Assembly: GCA_021849295.1 (NCBI GenBank)
Contig: JAJZTA010000002.1
Location: forward strand, 51,989 to 115,988
Direction of reading: 5' to 3'
From: Pseudomonadota bacterium
GTDB taxonomy: Bacteria; Pseudomonadota; Alphaproteobacteria; Micavibrionales; UBA2020
Length of the DNA stretch: 64,000 nucleotides
The position numbers and the translations under genes are program-made. How positions within the stretch are numbered: the first letter of the stretch is position 1; each line of letters starts with the position of its first letter. Under the pieces are notes generated by a model. It was not told the origin of the DNA and searched no databases. It saw nothing but the letters and a program-made list of their open reading frames with translations. This document shows, one piece after another, positions 26,041-62,157 of this stretch.

Positions 26041-26159
26041 CTTATATACCGGACATATTCGTTTCCATATCGCATTTACAAAAACATTGCGCCGCGCGGC
26101 TGATTTTGCTAATTTCCCTATTCATTCAAAATAAAGCCGCACACCAAGAAGGACACCTC

Positions 26160-27966: not shown

Positions 27967-30387
<2,421 letters not shown>

Positions 30388-30538
30388 GTGCTTCCTTTTC
30401 TGGTTATCTTTGTATTATACCACGCAATTATGCGCCCTGATTTCTTTAAAATTAGACAACGCTAATTTACGAAATAATATCAATTCTACCCGCGTAAGAC
30501 GGACACGATATTTGCATTTTTTCTAAAATTGTAAAGCC

Positions 30539-31174: not shown

Positions 31175-31270
31175 AAGTCCCCCTGGGTCTAAAACTATAA
31201 AGTGACCGATCATCTCTGACCGGCCACTTTATATTAGCAAGCTTGAAAGGGTAGTTTAAAGGACTTTTTT

Positions 31271-32242: not shown

Positions 32243-32333
32243 CTCGTAGGGCCTTTCTTGCTCGTGTTGTTCTTAGTAGTTTCTCGCTCGTTCAGTCATA
32301 ATTGAAGTATTTTTGTAGTCTTTTTTTTAGTTC

Positions 32334-33719: not shown

Positions 33720-33794
33720 CGGAGTAGCCTTCTTCTCGGTTATATATAATGTCACTTCGCCTGCGGACTCGCGTCCGCATCCGGTGGGCATCTA

Positions 33795-44146: not shown

Positions 44147-45505
44147 CTACCTTTCCCGCAGCGCCGTCTCCGAAGCGTTGATGAAGGGCTTGAGCAGATA
44201 TTGCATGACCGTCCTTTTGCCGGTCACGACATCGACCGTCGCCTGCATGCCGGGAATGATGGGATAGCTCCTGCCGTTCTTCTTTAAGCTGGATTCATCG
44301 GTGCGGACCTTGACGTGGTAGAAGCTCTCGCCCTTTTCGTTCGTCGTGCTGTCGGGGCTGATTTCCACGACGCGGCCCTTGAGCGCGCCGTAAACCGAGA
44401 AATCATAGGCCGACAGGCGCACGATGGCCTTCTGCTCCGGATGGATGAAGGCGATGTCGGAGGGCTTGATGAGGGTCTCGACGATCAACTGCCCCTCGCG
44501 CGGCACGATCTCCATGATCGGCTCGCCCGGCTTGATCACGCCGCCGACCGTCCTGATCCTGATGTTCATGACGGTGCCGTAGACGGGCGAGCGGATTTCG
44601 GTGCGGCGGCTCTTGTCCCTCAGCGCCGCCAGCGTCGCCTTCAGCGCGTTGAGATCGACCATCATCCTGGACAGATGCCGCTGCGCGTCGGCCTTGAACG
44701 TGCTTTCCTGTTCGGCGATGCGCCCCTCGGCCTCCTTCACTTCCGCCGCGGCCAGCGGCAGGGACTGCTCCAGCGCATCGAGATCTGCGCGCTTCTGGGC
44801 GATGTCGCTTTCGATCTGCAGCAGCTCCTCTCTCGAGGCCGACCCGCGTTTGACCATCGGCGCGACCATTTTTTTCCGCGCCTCGGACAGGTTGAGGACA
44901 CTGGCGACGTCGGCGATTTTCTTTTTCAGCCCGACGAGCTTCTGCTTTCTCTGCTCCAGTTGCTGTTGCAGCACGTCGAGCTGGCTTTGCAGCTGTTTTT
45001 CGCTTTGGGCGTAAGCGGCTGTTTCGGCGGTGACGGACCCGGGCGCGCCTTTCATAACGTCCGCAGGGAAGGTGAGCGGTGTCCCCGCCGCCTCCGCCTG
45101 CAAACGGGTGACCGTCGCCAGCATGCCGTAATATTTCCGGCTGTTGGCCTCGAGGTCGGATTTCGCCTGAATGTCGTTGAGACGCAGCAAAGGCTGTGCG
45201 GGCTCCACAGTGTCGCCCTCCTTCACCAGCATCTTCTCGACGATCCCGCCTTCGAGACTCTGGATCACCTGCACGTTGCCCGAGGGGATGACCTCGCCGC
45301 GCCCGCGCACGACTTCGTTAAGCGAAGAAAAGGCCGACCAGACGATGAACGAAAAAATGAACAGCGCCATCGCGTAAAGCAGCATATGGTCGCGCCACGG
45401 AATGCCGTCGGCGGCGGAAAAGTCGTCGTCGTATTTGCGCGTCAGGTCGAACTTGCGCAGATCGAATTCGCTGAAATCCAGTTTCTTTTTGATTTTTTTC
45501 AACAT
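44147..45505 (-). CDS. Type I secretion membrane-fusion protein (HlyD family)
   Basis: Start MLKKIKKKLDF. N-terminal TM, long coiled-coil and barrel-sandwich regions (GGIVEKMLVKEGDTV, RSPVYGTVMNIRIRTVGGVIKPGEPIMEIVP). Confidence 0.88.
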   Translation of the reverse strand: MLKKIKKKLDFSEFDLRKFDLTRKYDDDFSAADGIPWRDHMLLYAMALFIFSFIVWSAFSSLNEVVRGRGEVIPSGNVQVIQSLEGGIVEKMLVKEGDTVEPAQPLLRLNDIQAKSDLEANSRKYYGMLATVTRLQAEAAGTPLTFPADVMKGAPGSVTAETAAYAQSEKQLQSQLDVLQQQLEQRKQKLVGLKKKIADVASVLNLSEARKKMVAPMVKRGSASREELLQIESDIAQKRADLDALEQSLPLAAAEVKEAEGRIAEQESTFKADAQRHLSRMMVDLNALKATLAALRDKSRRTEIRSPVYGTVMNIRIRTVGGVIKPGEPIMEIVPREGQLIVETLIKPSDIAFIHPEQKAIVRLSAYDFSVYGALKGRVVEISPDSTTNEKGESFYHVKVRTDESSLKKNGRSYPIIPGMQATVDVVTGKRTVMQYLLKPFINASETALRER

Positions 45506-45509
45506 GCCT

Positions 45510-47684: not shown

Positions 47685-49009
47685 CACTTCTCCATCCGTG
47701 CCGCGCGCGGCGGCGCGATGCCCAGAGCGCCCAGCATCTTTCCCTCGAGCGCCAGCAGGCGGTAAACCGCGAAAGCGGCGGCATAGGCTTCGTTCATATG
47801 ATTGCTGCGCGCGGCGATCAGCTCGTTTTGCGCGTCCAGCACGTCGAGCAGGGTGCGGCGGTTCATCTTGAACTGGTCGAGATAGACGATCACCACCTTC
47901 CTGTCGGCTTTCGACTGGTCCGAAAAATCCCTGGCGCGGATGCGGGCGGCATCCAGCGCCGCCTCCGTGTCGCGGAAGTCCTTTTCCACCTGCCGCGCCG
48001 CCTGCGCGGCGCGGGCCGTCGCCTCCAGATAGCGCTGCATGTATTCGCGCCGCCGGTCCTCGTCGCCGCCGCCGTGATAGAGGTTCCACGTCATCACGAC
48101 CAGCGCGGAAACGTTACGCTGGCTGCCTCTTATGCCGGATTCATTAAATCCGTCGGAGCCGTTCACCTCGAAATCCAGCTTGGGATACAGGGCCGCGCCC
48201 GTTTCCTTGTAGCCTTCGAGCGCGGATCTGGCCTTGGCGCGACTGATGGCCAGCGTCGGGTTGTTCAGCAAAGCTTCCTGCACGCCCATGTCTACGGTTT
48301 TGGGCAGGCGGTTGTCGGGCACGGCGGGCGGAAGAAGCGTTCCCGGCATTTCCCCCGTTTTCTGGAGAAAAAGGTCCTCGGCGGTGACCAGATCGCGCTG
48401 CACCGCCGCCACGGCGGCGCGGGCGTTGCCGAGGCGCGCCTCCACCTGCGCCACGTCCCCCGCCGTGCCGGTGCCGCCCTTGAAGCCCGCTTTTACGTTG
48501 TCCAGAATGACCAGATGGTCGTCGACGTTGACGCGGGCGATCTGCAGCAAGGCGCGCTGGCGCAGAACGTCCAGATAGGCCTGCACGATGTCGAGCCCGA
48601 GAAACTCGCTCACCTCGCGCACATGCTCGTCCGCGGACTCGAGCCCGTAAGCCTGCGACCTGATCAGGTGCGTCGTGCCGAAGCCGTCGAAAAGAAGCTG
48701 AGTCAGCGTCAGGGAACCCTGCCGCTCCCACAGGTTCTGCCGGTTGGGCAGAAGGATAGGCGAGACTGTCTGCTGCCGCCCGCCCTGCGCCTGAAGGTCC
48801 ACCGCCGGAAAGTAGCCGGATCCGGCCTGCAACAGTAATTGCCGCGCTTCATTCTTCTGGCGGGCGGCGACGCCGTATTCGGGGCTGGTGTCGATCCCGC
48901 GGCGCACCGCCTCCGCCAGCGTCAACGGCGCAGGCGGTAGCGCGGCATAAGCGGCCGCCGGCAGCAGCATGCCCAGAACAAGACACAGTTCCGCCAGTTT
49001 ACCCTTCAT
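47684..49009 (-). CDS. TolC-family outer-membrane efflux protein
   Basis: Signal peptide MKGKLAELCLVLGMLLPAAAYAA. Duplicated OEP repeats (LTLAEAVRRGIDTSPEY...). Confidence 0.85.
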   Translation of the reverse strand: MKGKLAELCLVLGMLLPAAAYAALPPAPLTLAEAVRRGIDTSPEYGVAARQKNEARQLLLQAGSGYFPAVDLQAQGGRQQTVSPILLPNRQNLWERQGSLTLTQLLFDGFGTTHLIRSQAYGLESADEHVREVSEFLGLDIVQAYLDVLRQRALLQIARVNVDDHLVILDNVKAGFKGGTGTAGDVAQVEARLGNARAAVAAVQRDLVTAEDLFLQKTGEMPGTLLPPAVPDNRLPKTVDMGVQEALLNNPTLAISRAKARSALEGYKETGAALYPKLDFEVNGSDGFNESGIRGSQRNVSALVVMTWNLYHGGGDEDRRREYMQRYLEATARAAQAARQVEKDFRDTEAALDAARIRARDFSDQSKADRKVVIVYLDQFKMNRRTLLDVLDAQNELIAARSNHMNEAYAAAFAVYRLLALEGKMLGALGIAPPRAARMEK

Positions 49010-49073
49010 AAAGCTGCTCTTTGAAAAAGAGCGTGGCGGAAGCCTGTATTTGTTGTAGAGCATGGCTGTTACA

Positions 49074-49634
49074 TCATATGCGCGCCGCGGAAAGGGTCTG
49101 TCCGGCATTGGTCGCGGCGCAGGAAGGAGCCGGCAACAGAAACGAAGCGCTTTTTTGCGGCGTGTCCAACATCTCCTGCAACTGCCCGCGCGCGCGGGAA
49201 AGACGCGAGCGCACGGTGCCGACGGGGATCTTCAGCCTCTGGGCGACCTCCTCGTAGCGCAGGCCCTGAATGCAGACGAGCACCAGAATATTGTGATGTT
49301 CCGGCCGCAAGCGCTTCATCGTCGACATGATCGTCGACAGATCCACCCTGTTTTCCTGACAGGAGTCCTCCGCGATCCGGTTGAGATAGAAATCGGGATC
49401 GTGCTGGAATTCGAACTTTTTCTCGTGACGGTATTGCGAGATGAAGATATTGAACATGATCGTCGACAGCCAGCTGAAAAGATTGGTCCCCTCCTCGAAA
49501 TAGTCCTTCTTCTCCAGCGCCCGCAGGATGGTCGACTGCGACAAATCCTGCGCGTCGGAAGCGTTTCTCGTCAGGCGCAGCGCGAATTTGCGCAGGTTGA
49601 CTTCTTCGCGGACAAGCTCTTCCTGATATGACAT
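49074..49634 (-). CDS. ECF-type sigma-70 family factor
   Basis: Start MSYQEELVREE. Region 2 DAQDLSQSTILRAL..FSWLSTIMFNIFISQYR. Region 4 YEEVAQRLKIPVGTVRSRLSRARGQL. Ends 64 nt upstream of the tolC-like gene. Confidence 0.8.
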   Translation of the reverse strand: MSYQEELVREEVNLRKFALRLTRNASDAQDLSQSTILRALEKKDYFEEGTNLFSWLSTIMFNIFISQYRHEKKFEFQHDPDFYLNRIAEDSCQENRVDLSTIMSTMKRLRPEHHNILVLVCIQGLRYEEVAQRLKIPVGTVRSRLSRARGQLQEMLDTPQKSASFLLPAPSCAATNAGQTLSAARI

Positions 49635-49766
49635 GGTTTCTCCTTGCGCTGCCTTGGGAGCCGGATGCAACGACTAAACCTTCGGGCGCGAAAAGTATTT
49701 GACGCCCGTCAGAAATGAGCCGATTGACGATTTTTCGCCGATACCGCTCTTTGGAAGAGTACGCCT

Positions 49767-50207
49767 TCAGGCTATGGCGGAAAAAGAGATGTTTACAAGC
49801 GCATGATTGTCCTCGATCCATTCCGCCATCGCCCGCTCCTGCTCCAGAATTTCCCTGCACGCCTGCAGCACATCGGACGTATGCCCTTTGCGCGCGATAA
49901 AGATGATCTTTTCGTACAAATCGACCTCGGCGCACTTGATCGTAAACAGGTTCTCCCGCGAAATTTTCGGCACCAGCCGCGCGACGCCCCTCTTGAAGCG
50001 GGATTTGTCGACGCCGTTGATGTCGAGACACGCGTCGAGCAGCTTCATCTGCCAGCGCGTTTCCGAAAGATGCTCGTGCAATCGCTCCCGCGCCGCGGGA
50101 TGGACGACGGCATTCAGGCACTTGCGCAAGGCGCTCAAGGATTCCTTCTCGACCTCGCAGGCCGTGCATAAAAGCGTCCAAAGATGTTCCGACATCGCTT
50201 TGTCCAT
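49767..50207 (-). CDS. Ferritin-like four-helix protein, DUF892 (YciE/YciF)-like
   Basis: HLSETRWQMKLLDACL and ILEQERAMAEWIEDN resemble DUF892 motifs. Assignment from memory. Confidence 0.45.
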   Translation of the reverse strand: MDKAMSEHLWTLLCTACEVEKESLSALRKCLNAVVHPAARERLHEHLSETRWQMKLLDACLDINGVDKSRFKRGVARLVPKISRENLFTIKCAEVDLYEKIIFIARKGHTSDVLQACREILEQERAMAEWIEDNHALVNISFSAIA

Positions 50208-50214
50208 TTCCGCT

Positions 50215-50997
50215 TTAAATTTCCAACGCCGCAATCAGTCTTTTTTGCAGAACCGGAGGCACATCCAGACATAAAATATCCATGACCTTGCGGGCGTCGA
50301 CGCCGTGCGTCTTCACGATATGGCCGAGCTCTCCCGCAAAACCCGCTTTTGACGCATGCCACGCGCTCTCCGCATATTGAACGACTTCGGCAATCCTGAT
50401 TTGCGTGACAAACGCGGGCGCGTCTATGCCCTTGTAGAGGGCGGACACGGCACGCGCGGTTTTTTCGTCCAGCGCGCCGATGACGATTTTTGGCGGGTGG
50501 AAAAAATCGCGGACCGCCGCGCCCGCGCGCAGAAACGCGGGGTTGTTGCCGAATCCGAAGTCGGGCCCCGCGGTCATTTTGGAGCAGTCCTCCAGCGTCG
50601 GGATGGCGACGCTGTGCGCCGTGCCCGGCGCGCCCGTACTGCGTAAAACGACGCTGTGATAGGATTCTTTCTTGCCGATGGCGACGCCGATGCGGCTGCA
50701 AACGGCGCGGATGCCGTCTTGCAGCGGCGCGCCGTCTTCCGGCTCGGCGCAGATCAGGGAAAGATCGCTCTCCATGACGGCCTCTGCGCAGTCCGCCGTC
50801 GCCTTGAGCGCGCCTTTCGCAACGGCGCGGGAAACGATCTCCTCCAGCTCCGTCTCCGCGACGGGCGCGTGTCCGCCACGGATGCGTTTCACTTTGGAAA
50901 GGTCGGGATCGGCGATGATGACGTCATGCCCCAGATCCGCCAGACAGGCGCCGGTAACTGCGCCGACATACCCCGCTCCGAAAATACTGACCCGCAT
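50215..50997 (-). pseudogene. Truncated GDP-mannose/UDP-glucose 6-dehydrogenase (AlgD-like), lacking catalytic Cys and C-terminal domain
   Basis: MRVSIFGAGYVGAVTGACLADLGHDV...VVLRSTGAPGT..IPTLEDCSKMTAGPDFGFGNNPAFLRAGAAV...AEVVQYAESAWHASKAGFAGELGHIVKTHGVDARKVMDILCLD then a stop at 260 aa. Full-length family members are ~390-440 aa with GFGGSC..KD after this point. Confidence 0.65.
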
Positions 50998-51017
50998 CTT
51001 GCCTTCTCCCGCCGCTG

Positions 51018-52526
51018 TTATGCCGCTTTCAGTTTCTGGTCGTAGCTGCCAATCTCGGGAAAGCCGGAGAGAACGGCGTCTATCTCCGCGAACATGCCGT
51101 GCATATTCGCTTTCGACGCCGGGCTTTCGACGACGACGACGAGCCCCGGCTTGTTCGAGGACGCGCGCACCAGCCCCCATGTGCCGTCCTCCAGTGTGAT
51201 CCGCACACCGTTGACGGTATTGAGGCTGGCGATTTTGCGGCCCATCACCGTGCCGCCCTTCTTTATCTTCGCCAGATAGTGCTGCGTAATCGCATCCACC
51301 ACGGCGTATTTTTTATCGTCGTCGCACACCGGCGACATGGTGGGCGAGCTCCACGTCAGCGGCAGTTCCCCGCGCAGCTGCGCCAGCGTTTTGTCGGCGT
51401 GGCGGTCCATCATGCGGCACACCATGACGGCGGAGAGAATGCCGTCGTCATAGCCGCGCCCGACCGGCGTGTTGAAGAAGAAATGCCCGCTCTTTTCAAA
51501 GCCCGCGAGCGCGCCGAGGGCGTGCACGCGGCGCTTGATGTAGGAATGCCCCGTCTTCCAGTAGTCCGTCGTGGCATTGCGCGCCTTCAGGACGGGGTCC
51601 GTGCCGTAAAGCCCCGTCGATTTGACGTCGACGACGAAAACCGGATTCTTGCGCGTCGCCGCCAGATCGCGCGCCAGCATCACGCCGACCTTGTCGGCGA
51701 AGATTTCCATGCCGGTATTGTCGACCACGCCGCAGCGGTCGCCGTCGCCGTCGAAAGCGAAGCCGATGTCCGCGCCCGTCTCCCTCACCCTTTTGCTTAA
51801 GGCGTGGAGCATCTCCAGATCCTCGGGATTGGGATTGTAATGCGGAAAGGTATAGTCCAGCGTGCAATCCATCGCGATGACCTCGCAGCCGATCGCCTCC
51901 AGCGCCTGCGGCGCGTAGACGCCCGCCGTGCCGTTGCCGCAGGCGGCGACCACTTTCAGCCTGCGCTTCAGCTTGCCGCCCTTGGCGAGATCGGCGATGT
52001 AGCTGCCTTTCAAATCGTCTATATATATGTATGACCCGCCGGCGCGCTTCCTGACATGTCCGTTCAGGATCATCTTTTTGAGCCGCGTCATCAGCTCCGG
52101 CCCGAAAGTCAACGGGCGGGCGGCGCCCATTTTGACGCCCGTCCAGCCGTTTTCGTTATGACTGGCCGTCACCATCGCCACCGCCGGACAATCGAGCGCG
52201 AATTGCGCATAATAGGCGACAGGCGAAAGGGCGAGGCCGATATCCCTGACCTGACAGCCCGCGGAGATCAGCCCGATCGTCAGCGCATGCTTGATGGCGG
52301 CGCTGTAGGCGCGGTAGTCGTGCCCGACGACGATCGCGGGGGGAACGGATCTGGAAAGATCGTGCAGCAGCGTGCCGAGCCCCTCGCCCAGACGCTGCGC
52401 GCCGCGCAGGTTAAGCTGCTCCGGATAAAGCCAGCGCGCGTCATATTCGCGAAAGCCGCTTTCCGCAATCAGGGGTTCGCGTTCGAATGCTTCGGTGTTC
52501 GGGCGCATCGCCGTCTGCTCTGCCAT
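51018..52526 (-). CDS. Phosphomannomutase/phosphoglucomutase
   Basis: Start MAEQTAMRPN. Active-site TASHNENGWTGVK, metal loop FDGDGDRCG. Confidence 0.88.
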   Translation of the reverse strand: MAEQTAMRPNTEAFEREPLIAESGFREYDARWLYPEQLNLRGAQRLGEGLGTLLHDLSRSVPPAIVVGHDYRAYSAAIKHALTIGLISAGCQVRDIGLALSPVAYYAQFALDCPAVAMVTASHNENGWTGVKMGAARPLTFGPELMTRLKKMILNGHVRKRAGGSYIYIDDLKGSYIADLAKGGKLKRRLKVVAACGNGTAGVYAPQALEAIGCEVIAMDCTLDYTFPHYNPNPEDLEMLHALSKRVRETGADIGFAFDGDGDRCGVVDNTGMEIFADKVGVMLARDLAATRKNPVFVVDVKSTGLYGTDPVLKARNATTDYWKTGHSYIKRRVHALGALAGFEKSGHFFFNTPVGRGYDDGILSAVMVCRMMDRHADKTLAQLRGELPLTWSSPTMSPVCDDDKKYAVVDAITQHYLAKIKKGGTVMGRKIASLNTVNGVRITLEDGTWGLVRASSNKPGLVVVVESPASKANMHGMFAEIDAVLSGFPEIGSYDQKLKAA

Positions 52527-52985
52527 GTTTTTTTTCCTTGTTTTTCTTTTGAGCAAAAACCGCGGCCATGAAATCGCAGCTTGTGCACGAACAACGCACG
52601 CAGGCGAATAAAGTTCCGCGCGCGGCCGCGCTCCGAAAAAAACAACGCATCGCAATAATCATAAATTTTTCGCAAATATAAAGAAAATTATCGATTGCGA
52701 TTTTTTCCGCCAGAAGAAAAAAAGTTCTACCCCGAATTATCATTTAGTAGTAGCCTATTGGAATGGGAAGCTTGGCTGAAAAAAGTTCCCGCGTTTAGGC
52801 ACTATTAAGGATTAGAGTGTAACTTTAATCTTGTACGCGCAAAAAAGCGCTCCGGGCACGAAATGAGTAACTAAAACTCTTCCTGCCTTTTTTTTGGAAA
52901 AATCTTTGGAGAAACAACCAGCGATTCAAACGCAAGCATGCGCGGTGCATGGCTGCGTCAGATCGCAAGGCCTATGGGGGAATGA
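52527..52985. promoter_or_regulatory. 459-bp AT-rich divergent intergenic control region
   Basis: Markedly lower GC than its flanks (long A/T runs, e.g. 52650-52920). Lies between the divergent PMM/PGM gene and the giant T1SS-substrate gene. GGGGGA RBS before ATG 52986. Confidence 0.45.
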
Positions 52986-55900
52986 ATGCCAAGCAGCACT
53001 TTCAACTCGGATAACTTTAACCTGACAGACTGGGACCTGACACTGCCCGTGGACAGCACAGGCGGCACGACCGGCACGGCGAACACCGTCTATTCTCTGG
53101 TCGACTACACATCCCCCTATTTCTACAGCAACGCGGACGGCTCGATGACGTTCTCCGCACCGGTCGCCGGCGCGACGGCGGGCGCCAGCACGTTCGGCGC
53201 GGGCGCGGGCCTCAACGAACAGGGTACCGCGGGCTGGACGCTCGCCACCGGCGGCGGCACGATGTCGGCGACGCTCGCGGTCAACAGCGTTCCCACCCTG
53301 ACGGGCGGCGCGGAAGGCAGCGTCATCATCGGACAGGCGATGGTCGAGAACTCGAACGAGGCGCTGATCCAGATTTACTACGACGCCGGAAACATTTACT
53401 TCAGAAACACCCTTTACAACGGGCGTCAGGACACATACCAGTTCCACGACGCGGCGGGAAACACGCCCTCCATCGGGCTCGACCAGAAATTCTCCTATTC
53501 GATCGACGCGCACGGCAGCACGCTGACGGCGAAAATCTACATCGGCGGAGATGTCTACACGTCGACGACGCCGATCGATTCGAGCTGGAGCGCGCTGCCG
53601 CTCTACTTCAAGGCGGGCGCCTTTGACGGAGACGCGAGCGTGTCCGGCGGCAACCTGCCGCAGGCGACGGGCACGGGACAGGCGACGTTCTACGGCCTCG
53701 ACATGAGCCATATCGCGGGCAGCGGCCTCGGCGGCATTCAGGCGCCGGTCGCGGCGCCGGACAGCTTCACCGGCACGGCGGACCACGTCATCACCGGCAA
53801 CGTGCTGGCGAACGACACCGGCCCCGCAGGATTGACTTTAAGCGTCGCGCCGGAAACGCAGACGACCGCGCACGGCTCCGTCACGGTCAACGCCGACGGC
53901 ACCTTCGCTTACACGCCCACGACGGGCTACAACGGCGCGGACAGCTTCGCCTACACGCTGAAAGACGGCTCCGGCCTCACGGCGGCCGGCGACGTGCACC
54001 TCACCGTCGGCACGCCCACCGGCCTGCCGCCCGTCGCCAATCCCGACAGCTTCACCGGTACGGAAAACCAGCCCATCACCGGCAACGTGCTGACGAACGA
54101 TACGGATCCAGCCGGCCTCGCTTTAAGCGTCGCGCCTGCCACGCTGACGACGGCGCACGGCTCGGTGGTCGAGAACGCCAACGGCACCTTCACCTACACG
54201 CCGGCAACGGGGTATGTAGGGACGGATTCTTTTAATTACACGCTGCATGACAGCGCGGGACTCACGGCGACCGGCACGGTCAATGTGTCCATGACGCCGG
54301 CCACGACATCGACGGCGCCATCGGGATATTCGCTGGTGTTCGCGCCGAGCTTTGACACGCTCAGTCTCGAATCCTCCACAAACAAAGGCGGCACCTGGGA
54401 CACGACCTTCCCCTATTCGACGCCGGGATCGGCCAGCTTCAGCGGCCGCACCCTTTCCTCCAACCACGAGGCGGAGTTTTATTCCGACCCGACCGTCGGC
54501 GTCAATCCGTTCTCGGTCAGCAACGGCGTGCTGACGATCACGGCGGCCAAGGCCACCTCGCAGATGCTGCAGACGGAAGCCGCGGCGAACGGCGGCGCGA
54601 CGCTGCCCTACACGTCAGGCCTGCTCACCACCTACACGAGCTTCGCGCAGACTTACGGCCTCTATGAAATCACCGCGAAGATGCCCGCGGGGCAAGGCCT
54701 GTGGCCCGCGCTATGGATGCTGCCGGCCAGCCAGGCCTGGCCGCCGGAGATCGACCTGCTCGAGGAGATCGGCAATCTGCCGACCACCGATTACATGACG
54801 CTCCACTCCAAAACCAACGGCACCACCGGAATCACCAGTCAGGTCGACATGACGACGGGGTTCCACACCTATTCCGTCGACTGGGAGCCGAAGACCATGA
54901 CGTTCTACATCGACGGAAAGCAGGTCGGCCAGATGGCCACGCCTGCCGACATGAACCAGCCGATGTATCTGCTGATGAACCTCGCGGTCGGCGGCACGGG
55001 CAGCTGGCCGGGCGCGCCGAACAGTTCGACCGTGTTCCCCGCCCAGATGCAGGTCAGCTCGGTGCAGGTCTATGCCTCGCCGAACACCATCGCGGATTAT
55101 AACCACGTCGGCGTGCAGACAACCACTGCGCCGACCCCGACGCCGACGCCGACGCCAACTCCGACGCCGACACCAACTCCGACGCCGACACCAACTCCGA
55201 CTCCGGCGCCGACAACCTCAAACCTGCCGCCCGTCGCCAATCCGGACAGTTTCTCCGGCACGGAAAACCACCCCATCACAGGCAACGTGATGGCCAATGA
55301 CACCGATCCAAACGGCCTGACTTTAAGCGTCGATCCCGGCACGTTCGCCACCACGAAGGGCGGCGTTCTGCAGATAGCCTCCGACGGCAGCTTCACCTAC
55401 ACGCCGGCGACGGGATTTACGGGGACGGACAAGGTTTACTATACGCTGGCCGACAGCGCTGGCCTGAAATCAAGCGGTCTGGTGACGCTGAACGTCGGAA
55501 CATCGCAAAACCCGCCCGTGGCAAACCCCGACAGCTTCACCGGCACGGAAAATCACGTCGTCACCGGCAACGTGATGGCGAACGACACCGACCCGAACGG
55601 CCTTGCTTTAAGCGTCACCGCAGGCACCTTTGCCACCGCGCACGGCGGCAGCGTTGTCCTGAACGCCGACGGCACGTTCACCTATACACCCGCGGCAAAC
55701 TATTCCGGCACCGACAGCTTTACCTATACGCTGAACGACACCGCGGGGCTCACGGCGGCAGGAACGGCGACGATCGCCATCACCGCGCCGCTCAGCCCGC
55801 CCGTCGCCAATCCGGACAGCTTCACCGGCACGGAAAATCACGTCGTCACCGGCAACGTGATGGCCAACGACACCGATCCGAACGGCCTGGCTTTAAGCGT

Positions 55901-57311
55901 CACCGCCGCCACTTTGACGACGGCGCACGGCGGCACGGTCGTAACAAACGCCGACGGCACGTTTACCTACACGCCCGCGGCAAACTACGCCGGTCCCGAC
56001 AGCTTTACCTATACGCTGAACGACACCGCGGGGCTCACCGCCACCGGCACGGCGACCCTCGCCATCGAAGCGCCGCCCGTGGCCGCGCCGGACAATTTCA
56101 CCGGCACGGAAAACCACGTCGTCACCGGCAACGTGATGACCAACGACACCGACCCGAACGGCCTTGCCTTGAGCGTCACCGCCGCCACTTTGACGACGGC
56201 GCACGGCGGCACGGTCGTGACGAACGCCGACGGCACCTTCACCTATACGCCGGCGGCGAACTTCATTGGCACGGACAGCTTCAACTATACGCTGAACGAC
56301 ACCGCGGGGCTCACGTCCACCGGCACGGCGACGCTGGTCATCGACGGGCCGCCCGTGGCCGCGCCGGACAGCTTCACCGGCACGGAGAACCACGTCGTCA
56401 CCGGCAACGTGATGGCCAACGACACCGATCCGAACGGCCTCGCCTTAAGCGTCACCGCCGCCACTTTGACGACGGCGCACGGCGGCACGGTCGTAACGAA
56501 CGCCGACGGCACCTTCGCCTATACGCCCGCGGCAAACTTCACCGGCACGGACAGCTTCAACTATACGCTGCACGACACCGCCGGGCTCTCGGCCACCGGA
56601 ACGGCGACGCTTACCATAGACGCGCCGCCCCCCGCGCTCCCGCCCGCCGATCCGGTCGCGCACACCGACCTCTGGACGGGCATGGAAAACCTGCCGATGT
56701 TCGGCAACGTACTGACCAATAACGGCCTCGGCGCAGATACGGACCCGAACGGCCTTGCCTTGAGCCTCACGCCAGCCACCCTGACGACGGCGCACGGCGC
56801 AGCCGTCACGGAGGCCAGCGACGGCACCTTCACCTACATACCGAAGACAGGCTTCATCGGCACCGACAGCTTCAACTATACGCTGAACGACAGCGCGGGG
56901 CATACGGCGACCGGCACGGTGGACGTCACCATAGGGCCTTCTCCCACGCAGGGAGAAACCATCACCTTCGGGTATGGCAGCAGCATGCTCTTCGGCGCTT
57001 CGGGCGGACACGATACGTTCGTCTTCAACGCCGCCAACCTCGGCACCGGTACCGACACCATCAGGGGCTTCTCCACGACGAACGGCGATGTCATCAACAT
57101 TTCCAATGTCCTCGCCGGACATTACAACCCCGCGGCGAGCGCGGCGGTGTCGAACTTCGTCAACGTCGTGACCAGCGGCCACAACAGCGTCGTGGAGGTC
57201 GACCTCTCGGGACATGCGGGCGCTTCCGGCTGGGCGCAGGTGGCCACGATCTTCAGCGAGCCGAATCTCGACGCGCAAACGCTCATCAATCACGGCAATC
57301 TGGTTGTGTAA
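52986..57311 (+). CDS. 1441-aa secreted multidomain glycanase/adhesin: PL7-like domain, 2 repeats, GH16 domain, PT linker, 6 repeats, type I secretion C-terminal target domain
   Basis: No signal peptide. N-terminus NLTDWDLTLPVD...IIGQAMVEN...LYFKAGAFDGD (alginate-lyase-2/PL7 pattern). GH16 catalytic EIDLLE at nt 54747..54764. Eight PVANPDSFTGTENHVVTGNVMANDTDPNGLALSV..DGTFTYTP..DSFTYTL units. C-terminus GGHDTFVF..GTDTIRGFSTTNGDVINISNVL, resembling the VCA0849-type T1SS signal. Confidence 0.9.
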   Translation: MPSSTFNSDNFNLTDWDLTLPVDSTGGTTGTANTVYSLVDYTSPYFYSNADGSMTFSAPVAGATAGASTFGAGAGLNEQGTAGWTLATGGGTMSATLAVNSVPTLTGGAEGSVIIGQAMVENSNEALIQIYYDAGNIYFRNTLYNGRQDTYQFHDAAGNTPSIGLDQKFSYSIDAHGSTLTAKIYIGGDVYTSTTPIDSSWSALPLYFKAGAFDGDASVSGGNLPQATGTGQATFYGLDMSHIAGSGLGGIQAPVAAPDSFTGTADHVITGNVLANDTGPAGLTLSVAPETQTTAHGSVTVNADGTFAYTPTTGYNGADSFAYTLKDGSGLTAAGDVHLTVGTPTGLPPVANPDSFTGTENQPITGNVLTNDTDPAGLALSVAPATLTTAHGSVVENANGTFTYTPATGYVGTDSFNYTLHDSAGLTATGTVNVSMTPATTSTAPSGYSLVFAPSFDTLSLESSTNKGGTWDTTFPYSTPGSASFSGRTLSSNHEAEFYSDPTVGVNPFSVSNGVLTITAAKATSQMLQTEAAANGGATLPYTSGLLTTYTSFAQTYGLYEITAKMPAGQGLWPALWMLPASQAWPPEIDLLEEIGNLPTTDYMTLHSKTNGTTGITSQVDMTTGFHTYSVDWEPKTMTFYIDGKQVGQMATPADMNQPMYLLMNLAVGGTGSWPGAPNSSTVFPAQMQVSSVQVYASPNTIADYNHVGVQTTTAPTPTPTPTPTPTPTPTPTPTPTPTPAPTTSNLPPVANPDSFSGTENHPITGNVMANDTDPNGLTLSVDPGTFATTKGGVLQIASDGSFTYTPATGFTGTDKVYYTLADSAGLKSSGLVTLNVGTSQNPPVANPDSFTGTENHVVTGNVMANDTDPNGLALSVTAGTFATAHGGSVVLNADGTFTYTPAANYSGTDSFTYTLNDTAGLTAAGTATIAITAPLSPPVANPDSFTGTENHVVTGNVMANDTDPNGLALSVTAATLTTAHGGTVVTNADGTFTYTPAANYAGPDSFTYTLNDTAGLTATGTATLAIEAPPVAAPDNFTGTENHVVTGNVMTNDTDPNGLALSVTAATLTTAHGGTVVTNADGTFTYTPAANFIGTDSFNYTLNDTAGLTSTGTATLVIDGPPVAAPDSFTGTENHVVTGNVMANDTDPNGLALSVTAATLTTAHGGTVVTNADGTFAYTPAANFTGTDSFNYTLHDTAGLSATGTATLTIDAPPPALPPADPVAHTDLWTGMENLPMFGNVLTNNGLGADTDPNGLALSLTPATLTTAHGAAVTEASDGTFTYIPKTGFIGTDSFNYTLNDSAGHTATGTVDVTIGPSPTQGETITFGYGSSMLFGASGGHDTFVFNAANLGTGTDTIRGFSTTNGDVINISNVLAGHYNPAASAAVSNFVNVVTSGHNSVVEVDLSGHAGASGWAQVATIFSEPNLDAQTLINHGNLVV
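53745..54296 (+). repeat. Two coding tandem ~95-aa cadherin/Ig-like repeats (copies 1-2)
   Basis: Units start at nt 53745 and 54030. Confidence 0.85.
55128..55214 (+). repeat. Coding (Thr-Pro)12 linker microsatellite-like repeat
   Basis: gcg ccg (acN ccN)x12 gcg ccg encodes AP(TP)12AP. Confidence 0.95.
55230..56939 (+). repeat. Six coding tandem ~92-100-aa repeats (copies 3-8); copies 4-7 are near-identical at DNA level
   Basis: Unit starts at nt 55230, 55515, 55800, 56076, 56352 and 56652, giving periods of 285, 285, 276, 276 and 300 bp. Confidence 0.9.
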
Positions 57312-57313
57312 GC

Positions 57314-58231
57314 TTATAGCGCGCCGCTGTAATGACGGCCTGCCGCGCTGGAATTGAGCGCGTCCTGCAGGAATTCCGCGATCGGGCCGACCGCCGCGTT
57401 GTCGTTCATGGCATAGGCGACATTGGCCTTGAGCAAGCCCATGCTGTTGCCGCAGTCGTAGCGCTTGCCTTCGAAGCGGAACCCGTGGAAAGGCTGCGCG
57501 CCTATCAGCTGCGCGAGTGAATCCGTGAGCTGGATCTCCCCGCCGGCGCCTTTGCCGGCGTTGGTGAGATGGCCGAAAATTTCCGGCTGCAAAATATAGC
57601 GGCCGATGATGGTGAGCGTCGAGGGCGCGGCGGCGGGCTCCGGCTTTTCCACCAGCCCCTTGACCGACACAAGCCGTCCGCCGTCGTGGGCAATGTCGAG
57701 CACTCCGTATTTGCAGGTTTCCGCGCGCGGCACGTTTTCGACGGCGACCAGATTTCCGCCCACCTCTTCATAAGCCCGGATCATTTGCGCGAGGCAGGGC
57801 TCGCCGATCACGACGTCGTCCGGCAAAATGACGGCGAAAGGCTCGTCGCCGATCGCTTCCCTCGCGCACCACACAGCGTGCCCGAGGCCGAGCGGCTCGT
57901 CCTGATAGACGACGGATATCCTGCCCTCGTCCGCGGTGCTGTCCTGCAGGCTCGCCAGTTCGGCGGTTTTGTGGCGCGCGGTCAGCGTCTGATAGAGGGC
58001 GCTGTGCGGCCGGAAGTGGCTTTCGATCAGCGATTTGTCCCTGCTGCTGACGAACACGAATTCCTCGATGCCCGCGGCGCGCGCCTCTTCGTAGGCGTGC
58101 TGGATGAGCGGCTTGCTGCCCAGTATCAGCATTTCCTTGGGCAACACCTTGGTCGCCGGCAGAAAACGCGTTCCCAATCCGGCGACCGGAAAGACGGCCT
58201 TTTTCACTTTCAACGGAACATGATAACCCAT
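57314..58231 (-). CDS. galU: UTP--glucose-1-phosphate uridylyltransferase
   Basis: KAVFPVAGLGTRFLPATKVLPKEMLIL, VEKP motif. ATG 58231 with a GGAGGG RBS is preferred over GTG 58258. Confidence 0.9.
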   Translation of the reverse strand: MGYHVPLKVKKAVFPVAGLGTRFLPATKVLPKEMLILGSKPLIQHAYEEARAAGIEEFVFVSSRDKSLIESHFRPHSALYQTLTARHKTAELASLQDSTADEGRISVVYQDEPLGLGHAVWCAREAIGDEPFAVILPDDVVIGEPCLAQMIRAYEEVGGNLVAVENVPRAETCKYGVLDIAHDGGRLVSVKGLVEKPEPAAAPSTLTIIGRYILQPEIFGHLTNAGKGAGGEIQLTDSLAQLIGAQPFHGFRFEGKRYDCGNSMGLLKANVAYAMNDNAAVGPIAEFLQDALNSSAAGRHYSGAL

Positions 58232-58363
58232 AGCGCCCTCCATCGGCTTGTCCTGCACACAAACGCTTGCAGAAAAGGAACGTTCCTTGCGCGGCAGCGT
58301 TTAGAAAGATGGACGCTCAGCCGTTCGGATGAGCGGCGCACCCCCGAAAGGAGACGCAAAAGG

Positions 58364-59230
58364 ATGAAAATCACCTACTTTAAAGGAAAAGAGCCGAACT
58401 TCGGCGACGAACTCAACCCGTGGCTCTGGCCGCGGCTCATCCCGAATTTCTTCAATGACGATGAAAAGACCGTCTTTATCGGCATCGGCTCCATCCTCGG
58501 GCAGAGGACTTTTCGGGATGACGTCAAAAAAGTCGTCTTCGGCGCCGGATTCGTGCCGGAATACCACCAAAGGCCGCGCGTCACGGGGCCAGACTGGGAC
58601 GTCTATTTCGTGCGCGGCCCGCGCACGGCGAAAATGCTCGACATCTCCAACGATCTGGGGCTGGGGGATCCGGCCATTCTCCTGCGCACGCTCGAAAAGC
58701 CGCAGCCGCGTGCCGCAGCCGATACCGTCTCTTTCATGCCGCACTGGGAAAGCATGCACCGCGGCAACTGGACGGAGGCCTGCCGGCTGGCGAACATCCG
58801 CCTCATCGACCCGCGCAACCCCGTGGAAAAGGTTTTGCGGGAACTGCGCAGCTCGAAAATGCTCATCGCCGAAGCCATGCACGGCGCCATCACCGCCGAC
58901 GCGCTGCGCGTTCCCTGGGTGCCGCTGCTGCCGCTCAACTGCGTGCACCGCGGCAAATGGCTGGACTGGGCCGACTCGCTGAAGATAACGCTGCGCTGGC
59001 GCCGTCTCTGGCCTTCCAGTCTTGCCGAAGCGCGGCTCTCCGTCCTGCGCAAGCCCATCACCGCATCGCCCTTCGCCGGCGCGCTGCAAAAAGGCCTGAC
59101 CTACGCCGCCGCGCAGAGGCTGTCGCGCCTTGCAAGCGCCTCGCCGCAGCTCAGCGCCGACCGCGAGATAAACCGCGTGACCGACGCCATGCTGGGCAAA
59201 GTCGCCTTATTGCAAAGAAATTTCCGCTAA
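58364..59230 (+). CDS. Polysaccharide pyruvyl transferase (ExoV-like)
   Basis: MKITYFKGKEPNFGDELNPWLWPRLIP... matches the N-terminal pattern of ExoV-type ketal-pyruvate transferases (from memory). Hidden in track ORF 57569..59230. Confidence 0.6.
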   Translation: MKITYFKGKEPNFGDELNPWLWPRLIPNFFNDDEKTVFIGIGSILGQRTFRDDVKKVVFGAGFVPEYHQRPRVTGPDWDVYFVRGPRTAKMLDISNDLGLGDPAILLRTLEKPQPRAAADTVSFMPHWESMHRGNWTEACRLANIRLIDPRNPVEKVLRELRSSKMLIAEAMHGAITADALRVPWVPLLPLNCVHRGKWLDWADSLKITLRWRRLWPSSLAEARLSVLRKPITASPFAGALQKGLTYAAAQRLSRLASASPQLSADREINRVTDAMLGKVALLQRNFR

Positions 59231-59242: not shown

Positions 59243-60001
59243 TCAAAAGCTGAAAAGCGCCTTGTAGAGCGCGGGCGGAATGTGGGAACGGCATTTGTTC
59301 ATCACCACGCCGGCAACGCGGCCGCCGTGCATGTCGATCAGGCGCCGCAAATCCCTGATGACGGGGATTCTGGTGCGCCCCTCCTCGACGACGAGAACGC
59401 TCGCGTCCGCCAGACCGCTGAGGATCGTGGCGAGCGGGTTCGACAGGCCGGACTCCGAATAGACGACGATCAGATCAAAGACCGGCCGCAATTCGTCGAT
59501 GATTTTTATATGCGCGCGCCTGTCGGGGAAGAAGCTGTGACGCTCCTTGTATTCGTCGAAGGTCGCGAAGAACAGCGACGTTCCCTGCACGTTCACGAAC
59601 GGCGCGATGCTTTCAACCTCGTCTCCAGACTGGCTGTTGAGCGGCATAGGCACCTTGCCCCTGAGCTGCCTTATCACGCCGGAGGTGCTACCGTTTGTAT
59701 CGATGAACAGCACGCGCTTGCCCGTCCTTGCGCCCGCATAGGCCGTCTCGAAGGCGACCATGTCGGCGCCGGCGCCTTTGTGCGTACCCATAAAAAGCAC
59801 CGTGGGCGCGTCCGCCGTCTTCATGTTTTTCTCCACGGCATGAAGGAGGGAGACAAGTTTTGCCGGCGAAAGCGCATGGCTTATCGTTGCGGAGACGACC
59901 TGCCCCGGATGGGTTTCCGGCATCCTGAGCACGGGCGGTTCCTCCGCGCGCGGCGTTTCATAGACCTTTTCAGGTGATGTCATAGTTGCTACATTTTTCA
60001 T
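59243..60001 (-). CDS. ExoP C-terminal-like P-loop (BY-kinase-like) protein with degenerate Walker A
   Basis: VLFMGTHKGAGADMVAFETAYAGARTGKRVLFIDTNG has the MinD/BY-kinase fold pattern but no GK[ST]. Immediately downstream of the Wzz-like gene. Confidence 0.55.
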   Translation of the reverse strand: MKNVATMTSPEKVYETPRAEEPPVLRMPETHPGQVVSATISHALSPAKLVSLLHAVEKNMKTADAPTVLFMGTHKGAGADMVAFETAYAGARTGKRVLFIDTNGSTSGVIRQLRGKVPMPLNSQSGDEVESIAPFVNVQGTSLFFATFDEYKERHSFFPDRRAHIKIIDELRPVFDLIVVYSESGLSNPLATILSGLADASVLVVEEGRTRIPVIRDLRRLIDMHGGRVAGVVMNKCRSHIPPALYKALFSF

Positions 60002-60007
60002 GTGTTT

Positions 60008-61258
60008 TTACCTTCCAAAGCTTGCGAGGACCGGCAACCCCGTTGCCGCGAAGACCTGCTCGTTAAAAACGACCGTATCGTCCATAAGTTCCAAAAACAG
60101 CACGGTTCCGAGTCCGAGCAACGACGCCGTCATCAAAATCGCGAGCAGCAACAGCTTTTTGTGCCCGTTCACCGGCTTTAAAGGAACCACCGGCCTGTCG
60201 ATCACGGAGATGCGCGTGATGTTCTCCTGATTCAGGCGCTCGTTGACGCGCGCCTCGTCGTTGTGCAGCTGGTAGAACTTATAGTTCGCCGTGTCCAGGG
60301 CGACGCGCTGCTCCAGATCGTGATAGCGCTTGCGGTTCGCCTCGAGCAAGGCCAGCCGCTTGTTCACATTCGCGATCCGCGTGGCAAAGGCGCCGTCGCC
60401 GGCATTCTGCCCCTGCGCCTCGGCGCGCGCGGCGGCGAGGCTCTCGTCTATGCGCTGTATGACGGGGCTGTCGTCGCGATAGGTCGCTTCCATCGTAGCC
60501 CTGTCCTTTAAAAGCTTGGCAATCTCGGCCTGCGAATCGCCCATGTCCTGAAACGCGCGCACCGACAGATCCTTCTTCTCGGCCAAAAGCTGCGTCACTT
60601 CCTCATCAAGCAGCGTGATGCCTTTTTTCTGCTTGAAATCCCGCAAGGCCTGTTCGGACTGCTCCATTTTCTGGCGCATGACGTCGGCCTGCTGCTGCAG
60701 GAATGCCGTGTGCGGCGTGCCGAAGATGACGGACTGGCGCGCCGTGAAGATCTTCATGATGCGCGCCGCGACTTCTTGCGCGGTGACCGGATCGCGGTTG
60801 AAGACGCTGACACTGATGACGTCGCTGCGCGGATCGCTCACGACCTTGAGGCCGCTCGCGCGCAGCCGTGCGACCGCGGCGAGATCGGCCATTTGCGGTC
60901 CCTTCGTTCCCGCGCCGATGCCGGGATATATTTTTTCCGCACCCAGCGAGCGGACCACGGCCTTCAGCAAGCCGTCGCTCTCGAGCAGCGCGACGTTCGA
61001 CTGGAGCATCGCCTCGCGTCCGTCGCTGGAGAATGACATCGCCTGTCCGCTATCCGCGCTGCCGGTGGTCGGCAACGCGCCCTGGTCGAACCTGATGAGA
61101 AAAGTGCCTTTCGATTCGTACATCGCAGGCCTGTGCAGCAGATAAACGCCGCCGAAGAGAAACGCAAAGGAAAAGATCAGGAGAAAGATTTTCTTCTTCC
61201 TGAAGAACGCCGTTAGCAGTCCGCGTAAACCAAATTCAAAATACATTCGGTGCCTCAC
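60008..61258 (-). CDS. Polysaccharide chain-length determinant (Wzz/GumC/ExoP N-terminal-like)
   Basis: N-terminal TM (IFLLIFSFAFLFGGVYLL), long periplasmic coiled-coil, C-terminal TM (LLLLAILMTASLLGLGTVLFL). GTG at 61258 or ATG at 61246. Confidence 0.75.
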   Translation of the reverse strand: MRHRMYFEFGLRGLLTAFFRKKKIFLLIFSFAFLFGGVYLLHRPAMYESKGTFLIRFDQGALPTTGSADSGQAMSFSSDGREAMLQSNVALLESDGLLKAVVRSLGAEKIYPGIGAGTKGPQMADLAAVARLRASGLKVVSDPRSDVISVSVFNRDPVTAQEVAARIMKIFTARQSVIFGTPHTAFLQQQADVMRQKMEQSEQALRDFKQKKGITLLDEEVTQLLAEKKDLSVRAFQDMGDSQAEIAKLLKDRATMEATYRDDSPVIQRIDESLAAARAEAQGQNAGDGAFATRIANVNKRLALLEANRKRYHDLEQRVALDTANYKFYQLHNDEARVNERLNQENITRISVIDRPVVPLKPVNGHKKLLLLAILMTASLLGLGTVLFLELMDDTVVFNEQVFAATGLPVLASFGR

Positions 61259-61410: not shown

Positions 61411-62157
61411 ATGAAAACCTTCATCTTTTATCTCGGCATCGCCTTGCTCTTTATATTCGTGGCGGCGGAGAGGAATGCGCCGCAGGCGCAACAACTGCCT
61501 TTTTTCTCGCCCTATCCGCATCTTGACCGCACGCGCTGGCATCCGTCCAGCGGCTGGGCCAACGGCGACTGGCAGTCCTGCGAATGGCGCGCGGACGATC
61601 TTTCGGGCGTGGACGGAAATTTGCAATTACGCCTTTCGGACAAGGGCGGGAAATTGCGGCGCTACGACTGCGCAGAAATCCACAGCGCCGCCCGCATGAA
61701 GTACGGACGCTACGCGGCCCGCCTGCGCGCGGCCGCCGGCAGCGGCCTGAACACCGCCTTCTTCACTTACATCGGCCCGCCCGTAGGCGTCCCGTCGCAC
61801 GAGGAGATCGATTTCGAATTCCTCGGCAAGAACACGCATGCCGTCGAGATCACCTATTGGAAGTACGGAAAGAAATACGACCACGTCGTCATTCCGCTCA
61901 AGTACGACGCTTCCGCCGCATTCCACAATTACGCCTTCGAATGGACGCCGACCGCCATCCGCTGGTACGTCGACGGCCGTCAGGTGCATGAAACGCCCGC
62001 CAAAGCTCCCATACCCGAAAAGGCCGCGCGCATTTATCTGAGCCTGTGGTCCGGCTCGGCCGTCGAGAATTCATGGATGGGTCCATTCGTCTATCAAAAG
62101 CCCGTGACGGCGGAAGTCGCATGGGTGAAGTACACGCCCCTCAAGGTGAAGCCATGA
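61411..62157 (+). CDS. Secreted GH16 endo-beta-glycanase (ExoK-like)
   Basis: Signal peptide MKTFIFYLGIALLFIFVAA. GH16 catalytic EIDFEF. FHNYAFEWTPTAIRWYVDG. Confidence 0.8.
   Translation: MKTFIFYLGIALLFIFVAAERNAPQAQQLPFFSPYPHLDRTRWHPSSGWANGDWQSCEWRADDLSGVDGNLQLRLSDKGGKLRRYDCAEIHSAARMKYGRYAARLRAAAGSGLNTAFFTYIGPPVGVPSHEEIDFEFLGKNTHAVEITYWKYGKKYDHVVIPLKYDASAAFHNYAFEWTPTAIRWYVDGRQVHETPAKAPIPEKAARIYLSLWSGSAVENSWMGPFVYQKPVTAEVAWVKYTPLKVKP

Follow-up and report, generated by a model that had tools for sequence, protein, structure and literature searches.

In Sinorhizobium meliloti, ExsH and EglC are succinoglycan depolymerases of glycoside hydrolase family 16 (GH16) that leave the cell through the type I secretion system (T1SS) PrsDE, beside the Sec-secreted enzyme ExoK. 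ExoK and ExsH jointly yield low-molecular-weight succinoglycan (PMC4916376). In Rhizobium leguminosarum, a single T1SS (PrsDE) exports the exopolysaccharide (EPS)-cleaving enzymes PlyA and PlyB as well as the cadherin-like proteins RL2961 and pRL100309 (PMC2275737), and CBM32-PL7-GH16 enzymes, which include a domain of polysaccharide lyase family 7 (PL7), have been reported and assayed in marine bacteria (PMC13235733). Here we analyzed a stretch of 64,000 nucleotides (nt), subsequently designated the window, from a Pseudomonadota bacterium (Micavibrionales; UBA2020; assembly GCA_021849295.1, contig JAJZTA010000002.1, positions 51,989-115,988 of the forward strand). Its gene at 52986-57311 codes for a protein of 1441 aa, in which a PL7-like domain, a GH16 domain and tandem-95 repeats are combined with a C-terminal T1SS domain. 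This protein is probably a T1SS-exported modular EPS glycanase consisting of a working GH16 head and a PL7 head that has become a pseudoenzyme.

The parallel with ExsH, which had been drawn in an earlier reading of the window (subsequently designated the original prediction), held up in our analysis. Over 256 aa, the GH16 domain shares 44% identity with a 465-aa RTX-GH16 open reading frame (ORF) on S. meliloti pSymB, which we take to be ExsH from its position and length rather than from annotation, and the EglC model is the best NCBIfam match of this domain. As in Sinorhizobium, the EPS locus of the window holds a second, signal-peptide-bearing ExoK-like GH16 enzyme, and a T1SS is encoded nearby. 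In contrast to ExsH and EglC, the window protein is three times larger, carries an extra, dead PL7 domain and has tandem-95 repeats in place of the N-terminal RTX nonapeptides, the canonical GGxGxD motif being absent. Moreover, the T1SS of the window is of the LssB type and is accompanied by a TIGR03661 C-terminal domain.

Thr/Pro repeat linkers similar to the one described below occur among the PrsDE substrates of R. leguminosarum (PMC2275737), but there catalytic domains and cadherin-like repeats reside on separate proteins, the catalytic families are different and no pseudo-lyase has been reported. The marine CBM32-PL7-GH16 (and -PL6) enzymes likewise unite PL7 and GH16 on one polypeptide (PMC13235733). 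However, both alginate lyase and beta-glucanase activities were measured for these enzymes, their substrate is the brown-algal cell wall, they contain CBM32 modules rather than tandem-95 repeats and they are not T1SS cargo. A literature search on PL7, GH16 and type I secretion returned no relevant description. The claim that no enzyme with PL7-like, GH16 and repeat domains had been described must thus be narrowed: PL7 plus GH16 as such is already known from the marine enzymes, whereas a version with a dead PL7 domain, tandem-95 repeats and type I secretion has not been described so far. New here is the presence of PL7-like, GH16 and tandem-95 modules on one T1SS cargo, along with a conserved pseudo-lyase head.

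Domain architecture and catalytic residues of the PL7-like domain

The G+C content at third codon positions (GC3) of the ORF is 0.85, which is typical of genuine genes in this window of 61% GC, and the start of the protein, MPSST, is kept in the two orthologues L002 and L001 introduced below. Profile searches reproduced the originally predicted ORF and domain order almost residue for residue, i.e. PL7-like domain, two repeats, GH16 domain, (TP)12 linker, six repeats and T1SS C-terminal domain. Scanning for promoters and terminators around 52986-57311 gave no signal exceeding shuffle expectation. The gene comprises the following features:

52986-57311 (+): whole gene, modular exoprotein of 1441 aa without N-terminal hydrophobic (Sec) signal and with zero cysteines, pI about 4.05
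53016-53711 (+): PL7-fold (Alginate_lyase2) domain, aa 11-242, predicted to be catalytically degenerate (Pfam, PDB matches, AlphaFold2/Foldseek, substitution rates)
53202-53219 (+): GAGLNE, aa 73-78, at the RSELRE site (alignments to 4ozx and 8wok)
53334-53342 (+): Q117-A-M119 at the QIH site (alignments; the His is marked by the A1-II' H191N mutant)
53604-53624 (+): Y207-F-K-A-G-A-F213 (2cws wild type versus 2zab Y284F)
53745-54308 (+): tandem-95 / Big_9 / cadherin-like repeats 1-2, aa 254-441 (Pfam and NCBIfam repeat models)
54321-55118 (+): GH16 domain of the ExsH/EglC type, aa 446-711 (Pfam, NCBIfam EglC model, motif)
54747-54764 (+): GH16 motif E588-I-D-L-L-E593 (direct reading)
55134-55205 (+): (TP)12 linker, aa 717-740 (direct count)
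55230-56948 (+): tandem-95 repeats 3-8, aa 749-1321 (repeat models)
56949-57308 (+): C-terminal secretion domain, with TIGR03661 (VCA0849-class T1SS target domain) at 57054-57248

By sequence and by fold, the N-terminal domain is a homologue of the PL7 beta-jelly roll. Pfam Alginate_lyase2 (PF08787) matches aa 11-242 with 101 bits at a gathering score of 29.7, and PL7 structures in the PDB match the domain with up to E 1e-13. The AlphaFold2 model, to which the original prediction had pointed as a check, adopts the PL7 jelly roll with a predicted local distance difference test (pLDDT) score of 75 and a predicted template modelling (pTM) score of 0.79. When compared to the PDB with Foldseek, its top 37 matches were all PL7 with template modelling (TM) scores of about 0.7, one of them a glucuronan lyase (7nde). 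The former RSELRE strand (aa 62-82), which is rich in Gly and Ala, is modelled with low confidence.

The canonical catalytic set of PL7, represented by R146, Q189, H191 and Y284 of Sphingomonas A1-II', corresponds to Gly73, Gln117, Met119 and Phe213 in the window protein. In pairwise HMMER alignments, PL7 lyases of known structure (among them 4ozx and 8wok) have R-T/S-E-L-R-E opposite GAGLNE and QIH opposite QAM, as had been read from the sequence before. Within GAGLNE, the catalytic Arg is replaced by Gly73, the Glu by Gly75 and the second Arg by Asn77, whereas at the second site Gln117 is retained and the essential His, which is marked in the H191N/Y284F mutant of A1-II' (2zaa) by the sequence AQING, is replaced by Met119. 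The PDB sequence of wild-type A1-II' (2cws) reads YYFKAGNYVQ and that of the Y284F mutant (2zab) YYFKAGNFVQ, and it follows from this difference that the catalytic Tyr284 is the second Tyr of YFKAGxY, six residues past the Tyr of YFKAG. The window protein reads YFKAGAF; Tyr207 and Lys209 of YFKAG are retained, but the position of the catalytic Tyr is occupied by Phe213. The original prediction had taken the YFKAG Tyr for the catalytic one and was mistaken in this point. Its statement that two of four catalytic residues are lost is right as regards Arg and His, but the Tyr is gone as well, which brings the losses to three of four and leaves Gln117 as the sole survivor.

A catalytic Arg or His at a shifted position, which had been named as a possible objection, is excluded because aa 1-139 contain no Arg, Lys or His at all. 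The other two frames of 52986-53800 held no remnant of RSELRE or QIH. A frameshift or sequencing artefact behind the lost motifs was likewise ruled out, as two independent orthologues from metagenome-assembled genomes (MAGs) share the substitutions.

In PL7 enzymes, the Arg is conserved across the family and needed for lyase activity, and His-to-Asn and Tyr-to-Phe mutants are inactive (PMC11920209). With Gly, Met and Phe in place of Arg, His and Tyr, the PL7-like domain should be incapable of canonical beta-elimination. Judged from its sequence, the domain is thus a PL7-fold homologue and, by canonical criteria, predicted not to be a functional PL7 lyase, which agrees with the earlier assessment that it looks inactive. 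One might argue that the domain is still an active lyase, or another enzyme, by means of non-canonical residues: Gln117, Tyr207 and Lys209 are retained, the fold is preserved, the domain is under purifying selection (see below) and PL7 includes non-alginate specificities such as that of the glucuronan lyase 7nde. However, all three replacements are non-ionisable residues, single mutations of the His or Tyr inactivate PL7 enzymes and mutations of the Arg abolish lyase activity (PMC11920209), aa 1-139 offer no alternative basic residue, and the canonical set is retained in nearly all of the roughly 150 best relatives. We therefore consider residual catalysis highly improbable.

Distribution of the residue losses, selection and the repeat stalk

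Relatives of the domain were collected by a word-indexed search of 5.8 billion proteins and by an exhaustive HMMER search of 1.84 billion cluster representatives. The former yielded 16 relatives, in which Arg and His are intact without exception (16/16) and only one of which (P0013) has Phe at the position of the catalytic Tyr; the closest match, P0001, is a truncated gene on a contig of 5.8 kb. The exhaustive search returned 580 relatives, and nearly all of the best 150 retain RSELRE, GQIH and YFKAGxY. Two full-length orthologues were found by a genome scan in alphaproteobacterial MAGs, namely L002 with 1413 aa (88% identity) and L001 with 1227 aa (77% identity). The Gly/Met/Phe state is common to the two proteins, which read FGAGSGLNEQ / GQVM / YFKAGAF and FGTGSGLNEQ / GQLM / YFKAGVF, respectively. 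Loss of all three residues was seen only in the window protein and these two orthologues. As to the question, raised with the original prediction, of whether close full-length homologues have already been characterised, two such homologues do exist but both are uncharacterised.

The N-terminal half of the PL7-like domain contains 0-1 Arg plus Lys residues in the window protein, L002 and L001, as compared to a median of 11 and a minimum of 5 in 52 relatives. This complete loss of basic residues in the cleft-forming half argues against uronate binding. Should the domain serve as a carbohydrate-binding module, which the original prediction had put forward as a possibility, a polyuronate would be an unlikely ligand. 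Separately, P0013 and P0108, two otherwise canonical PL7 relatives with Arg and His retained, carry Phe at the catalytic Tyr (YFKAGAF and YFKAGVF, respectively), indicating that loss of the Tyr alone arises sporadically elsewhere in the PL7 family.

Among the three orthologues, the ratio of non-synonymous to synonymous substitution rates (dN/dS) is 0.16-0.23 for the PL7-like domain, with upper bounds of the bootstrap 95% confidence intervals of 0.35 or less, 0.08-0.19 for the GH16 domain and 0.04-0.10 for the C-terminal secretion domain. The purifying selection acting on the PL7-like domain points to a non-catalytic role for it. As far as substitution patterns tell, the dead domain is a maintained pseudoenzyme and not a decaying relic.

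The remaining length of the protein is dominated by repeats. The tandem-95 model NF012211 matches in eight stretches with 422 bits (cut-off 90) and Pfam Big_9 with 519 bits, which identifies eight Big_9 / tandem-95 repeats in a 2 + 6 arrangement. Repeats 4-7 form a four-copy tandem array with a unit of 276 nt (55512-56630), with 87% matches at the DNA level and 81-90% aa identity to each other. Repeat number is 2+6 in the window protein and L002 but 2+4 in L001, and a (TP)12 linker is found in the window protein but in neither L002 nor L001. These differences in repeat number and linker indicate that the repeat stalk evolves quickly through gain and loss of units.

The closest intact relatives, P0017 (730 aa), P0018 (544 aa), P0019 (953 aa) and P0021 (859 aa), are uncharacterised proteins of metagenomic origin whose PL7 domains are 57-59% identical to that of the window protein. 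Like the window protein, they have an N-terminal PL7 domain followed by the same type of tandem-95 repeats and lack a Sec signal, and P0017 and P0021 also share its C-terminal domain (52% identity for P0017). Unlike the window protein, all four retain RSELRE, QIH and YFKAGxY and are devoid of GH16; a GH16 domain was found in none of the 164 proteins that were retrieved. The most economical history is that a lyase on a stalk gained GH16 and lost its lyase chemistry, and we infer the following order of events: the ancestor would have been a secreted protein of the type PL7 lyase, repeats and T1SS signal, into which the GH16 module was probably inserted between repeats 2 and 3, the lyase chemistry being lost then or before. 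In more general terms, a repeat stalk with a C-terminal signal appears to be the common scaffold of T1SS-secreted EPS-modifying enzymes in Alphaproteobacteria, and catalytic heads (PL7, pectate-lyase-like, GH16) seem to have been swapped onto it.

Two further arrangements were observed among the relatives. On the metagenomic contig L080 (6210-9650 and 10001-12193), P0017 adjoins a 1146-aa protein composed of a pectate-lyase-type beta-helix, Big_9 and RTX; here, different polysaccharide-cleaving heads sit on one type of repeat / T1SS scaffold. In Rhizobium aethiopicum (L008, 9992-11755), a 587-aa protein joins PL7 with RTX repeats and has RSELRE, QIH and YFKAGAY intact. Rhizobium PL7-RTX proteins with intact motifs are represented by L008 and by the plasmid matches H26-H29, and the L008 protein may be RL2412, a PrsDE-secreted 'glycosyl hydrolase' of R. 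leguminosarum (PMC2275737).

GH16 domain, secretion system and the exopolysaccharide locus

Pfam GH16 (PF00722) matches aa 506-677 with 84.7 bits against a threshold of 22. The E-x-D-x-x-E motif is present as EIDLLE (588-593), which aligns to EIDIME of a solved beta-1,3-glucanase, and the originally noted intact catalytic motif is thus found within a genuine family match. The EglC model NF052454 matches aa 446-697 at its positions 215-457 with 221.8 bits; the cut-off being 700 and the N-terminal RTX region absent, the protein is not an EglC equivalog. The nearest solved GH16 structures are laminarinases and beta-1,3-glucanases, and the domain belongs to widespread alphaproteobacterial GH16 modules that are mostly embedded in RTX-type proteins. 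The domain is predicted to be a working endo-beta-glucanase of the ExsH/EglC type.

The genes surrounding 52986-57311 that matter for its interpretation are the following; a gene for a GT4 glycosyltransferase flanks it as well:

44147-45589 (-): HlyD-family T1SS periplasmic adaptor (TIGR01843, 404 bits, cut-off 209; Pfam HlyD_3)
45510-48089 (-): LssB-type T1SS permease/ATPase of the ATP-binding cassette (ABC) type (TIGR03375, 904 bits, cut-off 693); by comparison with its L002 orthologue of 725 aa, the true start probably lies near 47687
47684-49108 (-): TolC-like outer-membrane protein of the T1SS (Pfam OEP, 144 bits; TIGR01844, 215.5 bits, cut-off 225)
49767-50234 (-): DUF892 gene, directly after the truncated dehydrogenase gene
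50215-51000 (-): truncated UDP-glucose dehydrogenase, model positions 1-246 of 413 (ORF to 51180, probable start 51000)
51018-52655 (-): PGM, flanking the gene
57314-58258 (-): GalU, flanking the gene
57569-59230 (+): pyruvyl transferase (mechanical ORF; Pfam domain from aa 302)
59243-61258 (-): split chain-length determinant and kinase-like pair
61411-62157 (+): ExoK-like, lichenase-type GH16 with signal peptide (MKTFIFYLGIALLFIFVAA) and EIDFEF motif (ExoK model, 228 bits, cut-off 350)

The ExoK-like enzyme at 61411-62157 confirmed the original prediction in both its Sec signal and its match to the ExoK model, the latter remaining below the cut-off. At the C-terminus of the 1441-aa protein, TIGR03661 matches aa 1357-1421 with 31.6 bits (cut-off 17.6), which classifies it as a VCA0849-class T1SS substrate, and a complete T1SS made up of ABC, HlyD and TolC-like components is encoded about 4 kb upstream, with the ABC and HlyD proteins above their NCBIfam cut-offs. 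The T1SS gene arrangement is kept in L002. The view of the protein as a chimeric T1SS cargo with cognate transport genes in its vicinity, put forward earlier, is supported by this C-terminal domain and the adjacent system, and it may be proposed that the domain is recognised by the LssB-type ABC / HlyD / TolC-like system and that export proceeds with the C-terminus first.

An LssB-type ABC transporter together with a VCA0849-class C-terminal domain is the class used by surface-retained adhesins. This bears on a rather unlikely alternative, according to which the N-terminal domain is a structural or retention element rather than a glycan-binding one. Here, the pre-folded jelly roll would emerge last and cap or plug the channel, so that the enzyme would be tethered at the surface in the manner of the LapA/FrhA-type proteins exported by LssB/LapB-class systems, and the repeats would keep GH16 at a constant distance. 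Besides the type of transporter and cargo, the lack of basic residues in the cleft half and the Gly/Ala-rich, poorly modelled former RSELRE strand fit this idea in that they speak against a preserved uronate-binding cleft; the purifying selection on the N-terminal domain is compatible with it, and the cell-bound T1SS glycanase PlyA provides a precedent (PMC2275737). On the other hand, the protein is not a LapA/FrhA-type adhesin by its composition, since the PL7-like domain occupies its N-terminus. Homologues of LapG or LapD were absent from the ORFs scanned around the T1SS, a LapA-type retention module or LapG cleavage motif was not seen on inspection by eye, a systematic search not having been made, and the intact relatives hold an apparently active lyase at the same N-terminal position.

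The window is collinear with L002 over 42673-64000 at 84-88% nucleotide identity and with L001 from 51309 onward. This synteny is relevant to another unlikely reading, namely that the main targets of the protein are foreign beta-glucans, such as the beta-1,3 / 1,3-1,4-glucans of plants, fungi or lichens, which it would attack for nutrition or colonisation, or that it mainly serves as a repeat-rich biofilm adhesin, its position in an EPS locus being incidental. The laminarinases and beta-1,3-glucanases among the closest GH16 structures would suit a foreign glucan, as would the homologous GH16 domains found in many alphaproteobacterial RTX proteins outside EPS loci, one of them in a lichen MAG. 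An adhesin would be in keeping with the repeat region scoring 175.5 bits on the BapA/LapF adhesin model, whose cut-off is 180, and with the proposal that cadherin-like T1SS proteins are adhesins in Rhizobium (PMC2275737). However, the gene lies between PGM and GalU in an exo-like cluster with an ExoK-like GH16 and a T1SS, a layout that is shared by L002 and carries on in L001, and the best family match is the succinoglycan-type EglC, along with the identity of the GH16 domain to the pSymB RTX-GH16 ORF.

We thus return to a T1SS-exported EPS glycanase as the preferred reading. The eight tandem-95 repeats would probably form an extended stalk outside the cell, and the GH16 domain would cleave beta-glucosidic bonds. 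Its target is most likely the backbone of the polymer that the flanking exo-like cluster produces, i.e. the own EPS of the organism. This cluster, as predicted, comprises PGM, GalU, pyruvyl transferase, chain-length determinant, glycosyltransferases and the second, ExoK-like Sec-secreted GH16, and its product is probably pyruvylated and rich in glucose. The GH16 domain may act in parallel to the periplasmic or Sec-exported ExoK-like enzyme, as do ExsH and ExoK on succinoglycan, and by analogy we infer that the two-glycanase logic of Sinorhizobium is repeated at this locus. For the dead PL7 head, a non-catalytic function is envisaged, candidates being targeting to a neutral glycan or to the surface, or a cap for structural or retention purposes, which would be the last part to emerge during export.

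The predicted UDP-glucose dehydrogenase (ugd) of the locus is also degenerate. With about 260 aa, it is confined to the N domain and the first part of the central domain, breaking off ahead of the region of the catalytic Cys. The same truncation is present in L002 (about 6646-7833). Its dN/dS is 0.24, as compared to 0.08 for PGM and GalU. Uronate is required as the substrate of a lyase, and the fact that ugd and the lyase head have degenerated together is therefore suggestive of a tie to EPS chemistry, and loss of the lyase chemistry possibly went together with loss of UDP-glucuronate synthesis in the locus. Carried further, this leads to a catalytic hand-over: an ancestral T1SS-secreted EPS lyase would have acted on a polymer containing glucuronate, loss of ugd would have made the lyase useless, GH16 would have been grafted into the stalk, and the dead PL7 domain would have persisted under selection as a novel type of non-catalytic module that serves T1SS retention or the targeting of a neutral glycan or of the surface. 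We regard this scenario as tentative and on balance doubtful. If true, the PL7-like domain would be a naturally evolved 'pseudo-lyase' accessory module.

Several points weigh against the interpretation as a whole. At a dN/dS of 0.24, the dehydrogenase gene is not clearly a neutral pseudogene, and an intact ugd may exist elsewhere in the genome, so that the joint degeneration of ugd and lyase head does not amount to proof. Three orthologues are too few to show constraint on the cleft residues specifically, and the relatives all come from uncultured MAGs or metagenomes. The TolC-like protein falls slightly short of its NCBIfam cut-off (215.5 versus 225 bits), a marginal result, but its Pfam OEP match reaches 144 bits. 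The window ends inside the EPS cluster, and GH16 might act on a beta-glucan of foreign origin instead of the own EPS.

Some additional observations concern the surroundings. The pyruvyl-transferase ORF overlaps GalU by about 700 nt on the opposite strand, and its L002 homologue has 325 aa; together with the start of the Pfam domain at aa 302, this places the true start probably near 58250. A gene for an ECF-type sigma factor (49074-49670, -) is located immediately upstream of the T1SS operon, with the TolC-like gene on one side and the DUF892 / ugd remnant on the other, and regulation of the secretion / EPS locus by this factor is possible. Three ORFs at 23254-24645 (+) and 24649-26040 (+), with 463 aa each, and at 26106-26954 (+), with 282 aa, have GC3 values of 0.84-0.93, a strong sign of coding sequence, and no Pfam match at E <= 1e-5. 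The surroundings at about 7100-22400 (-) and 27967-33791 (-) are housekeeping in nature, containing a nuo-like operon (assigned solely by the size and order of its ORFs), trigger factor, Lon and two paralogues of ClpP. This is a chromosomal locus and not an obvious mobile island.

Implications for lyase pseudoenzymes and annotation

The window protein provides a clean natural case of a predicted polysaccharide-lyase pseudoenzyme, in which three catalytic residues have been replaced in a lineage-specific manner while the domain is still conserved, and a non-catalytic module derived from PL7 could be defined on its basis. In profile searches, the protein would be mistaken for a bifunctional 'alginate lyase / glucanase', which calls for caution in the annotation of carbohydrate-active enzymes. 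Finally, the degeneration of ugd alongside that of the lyase head suggests that the chemistry of an EPS and that of its depolymerase are connected.

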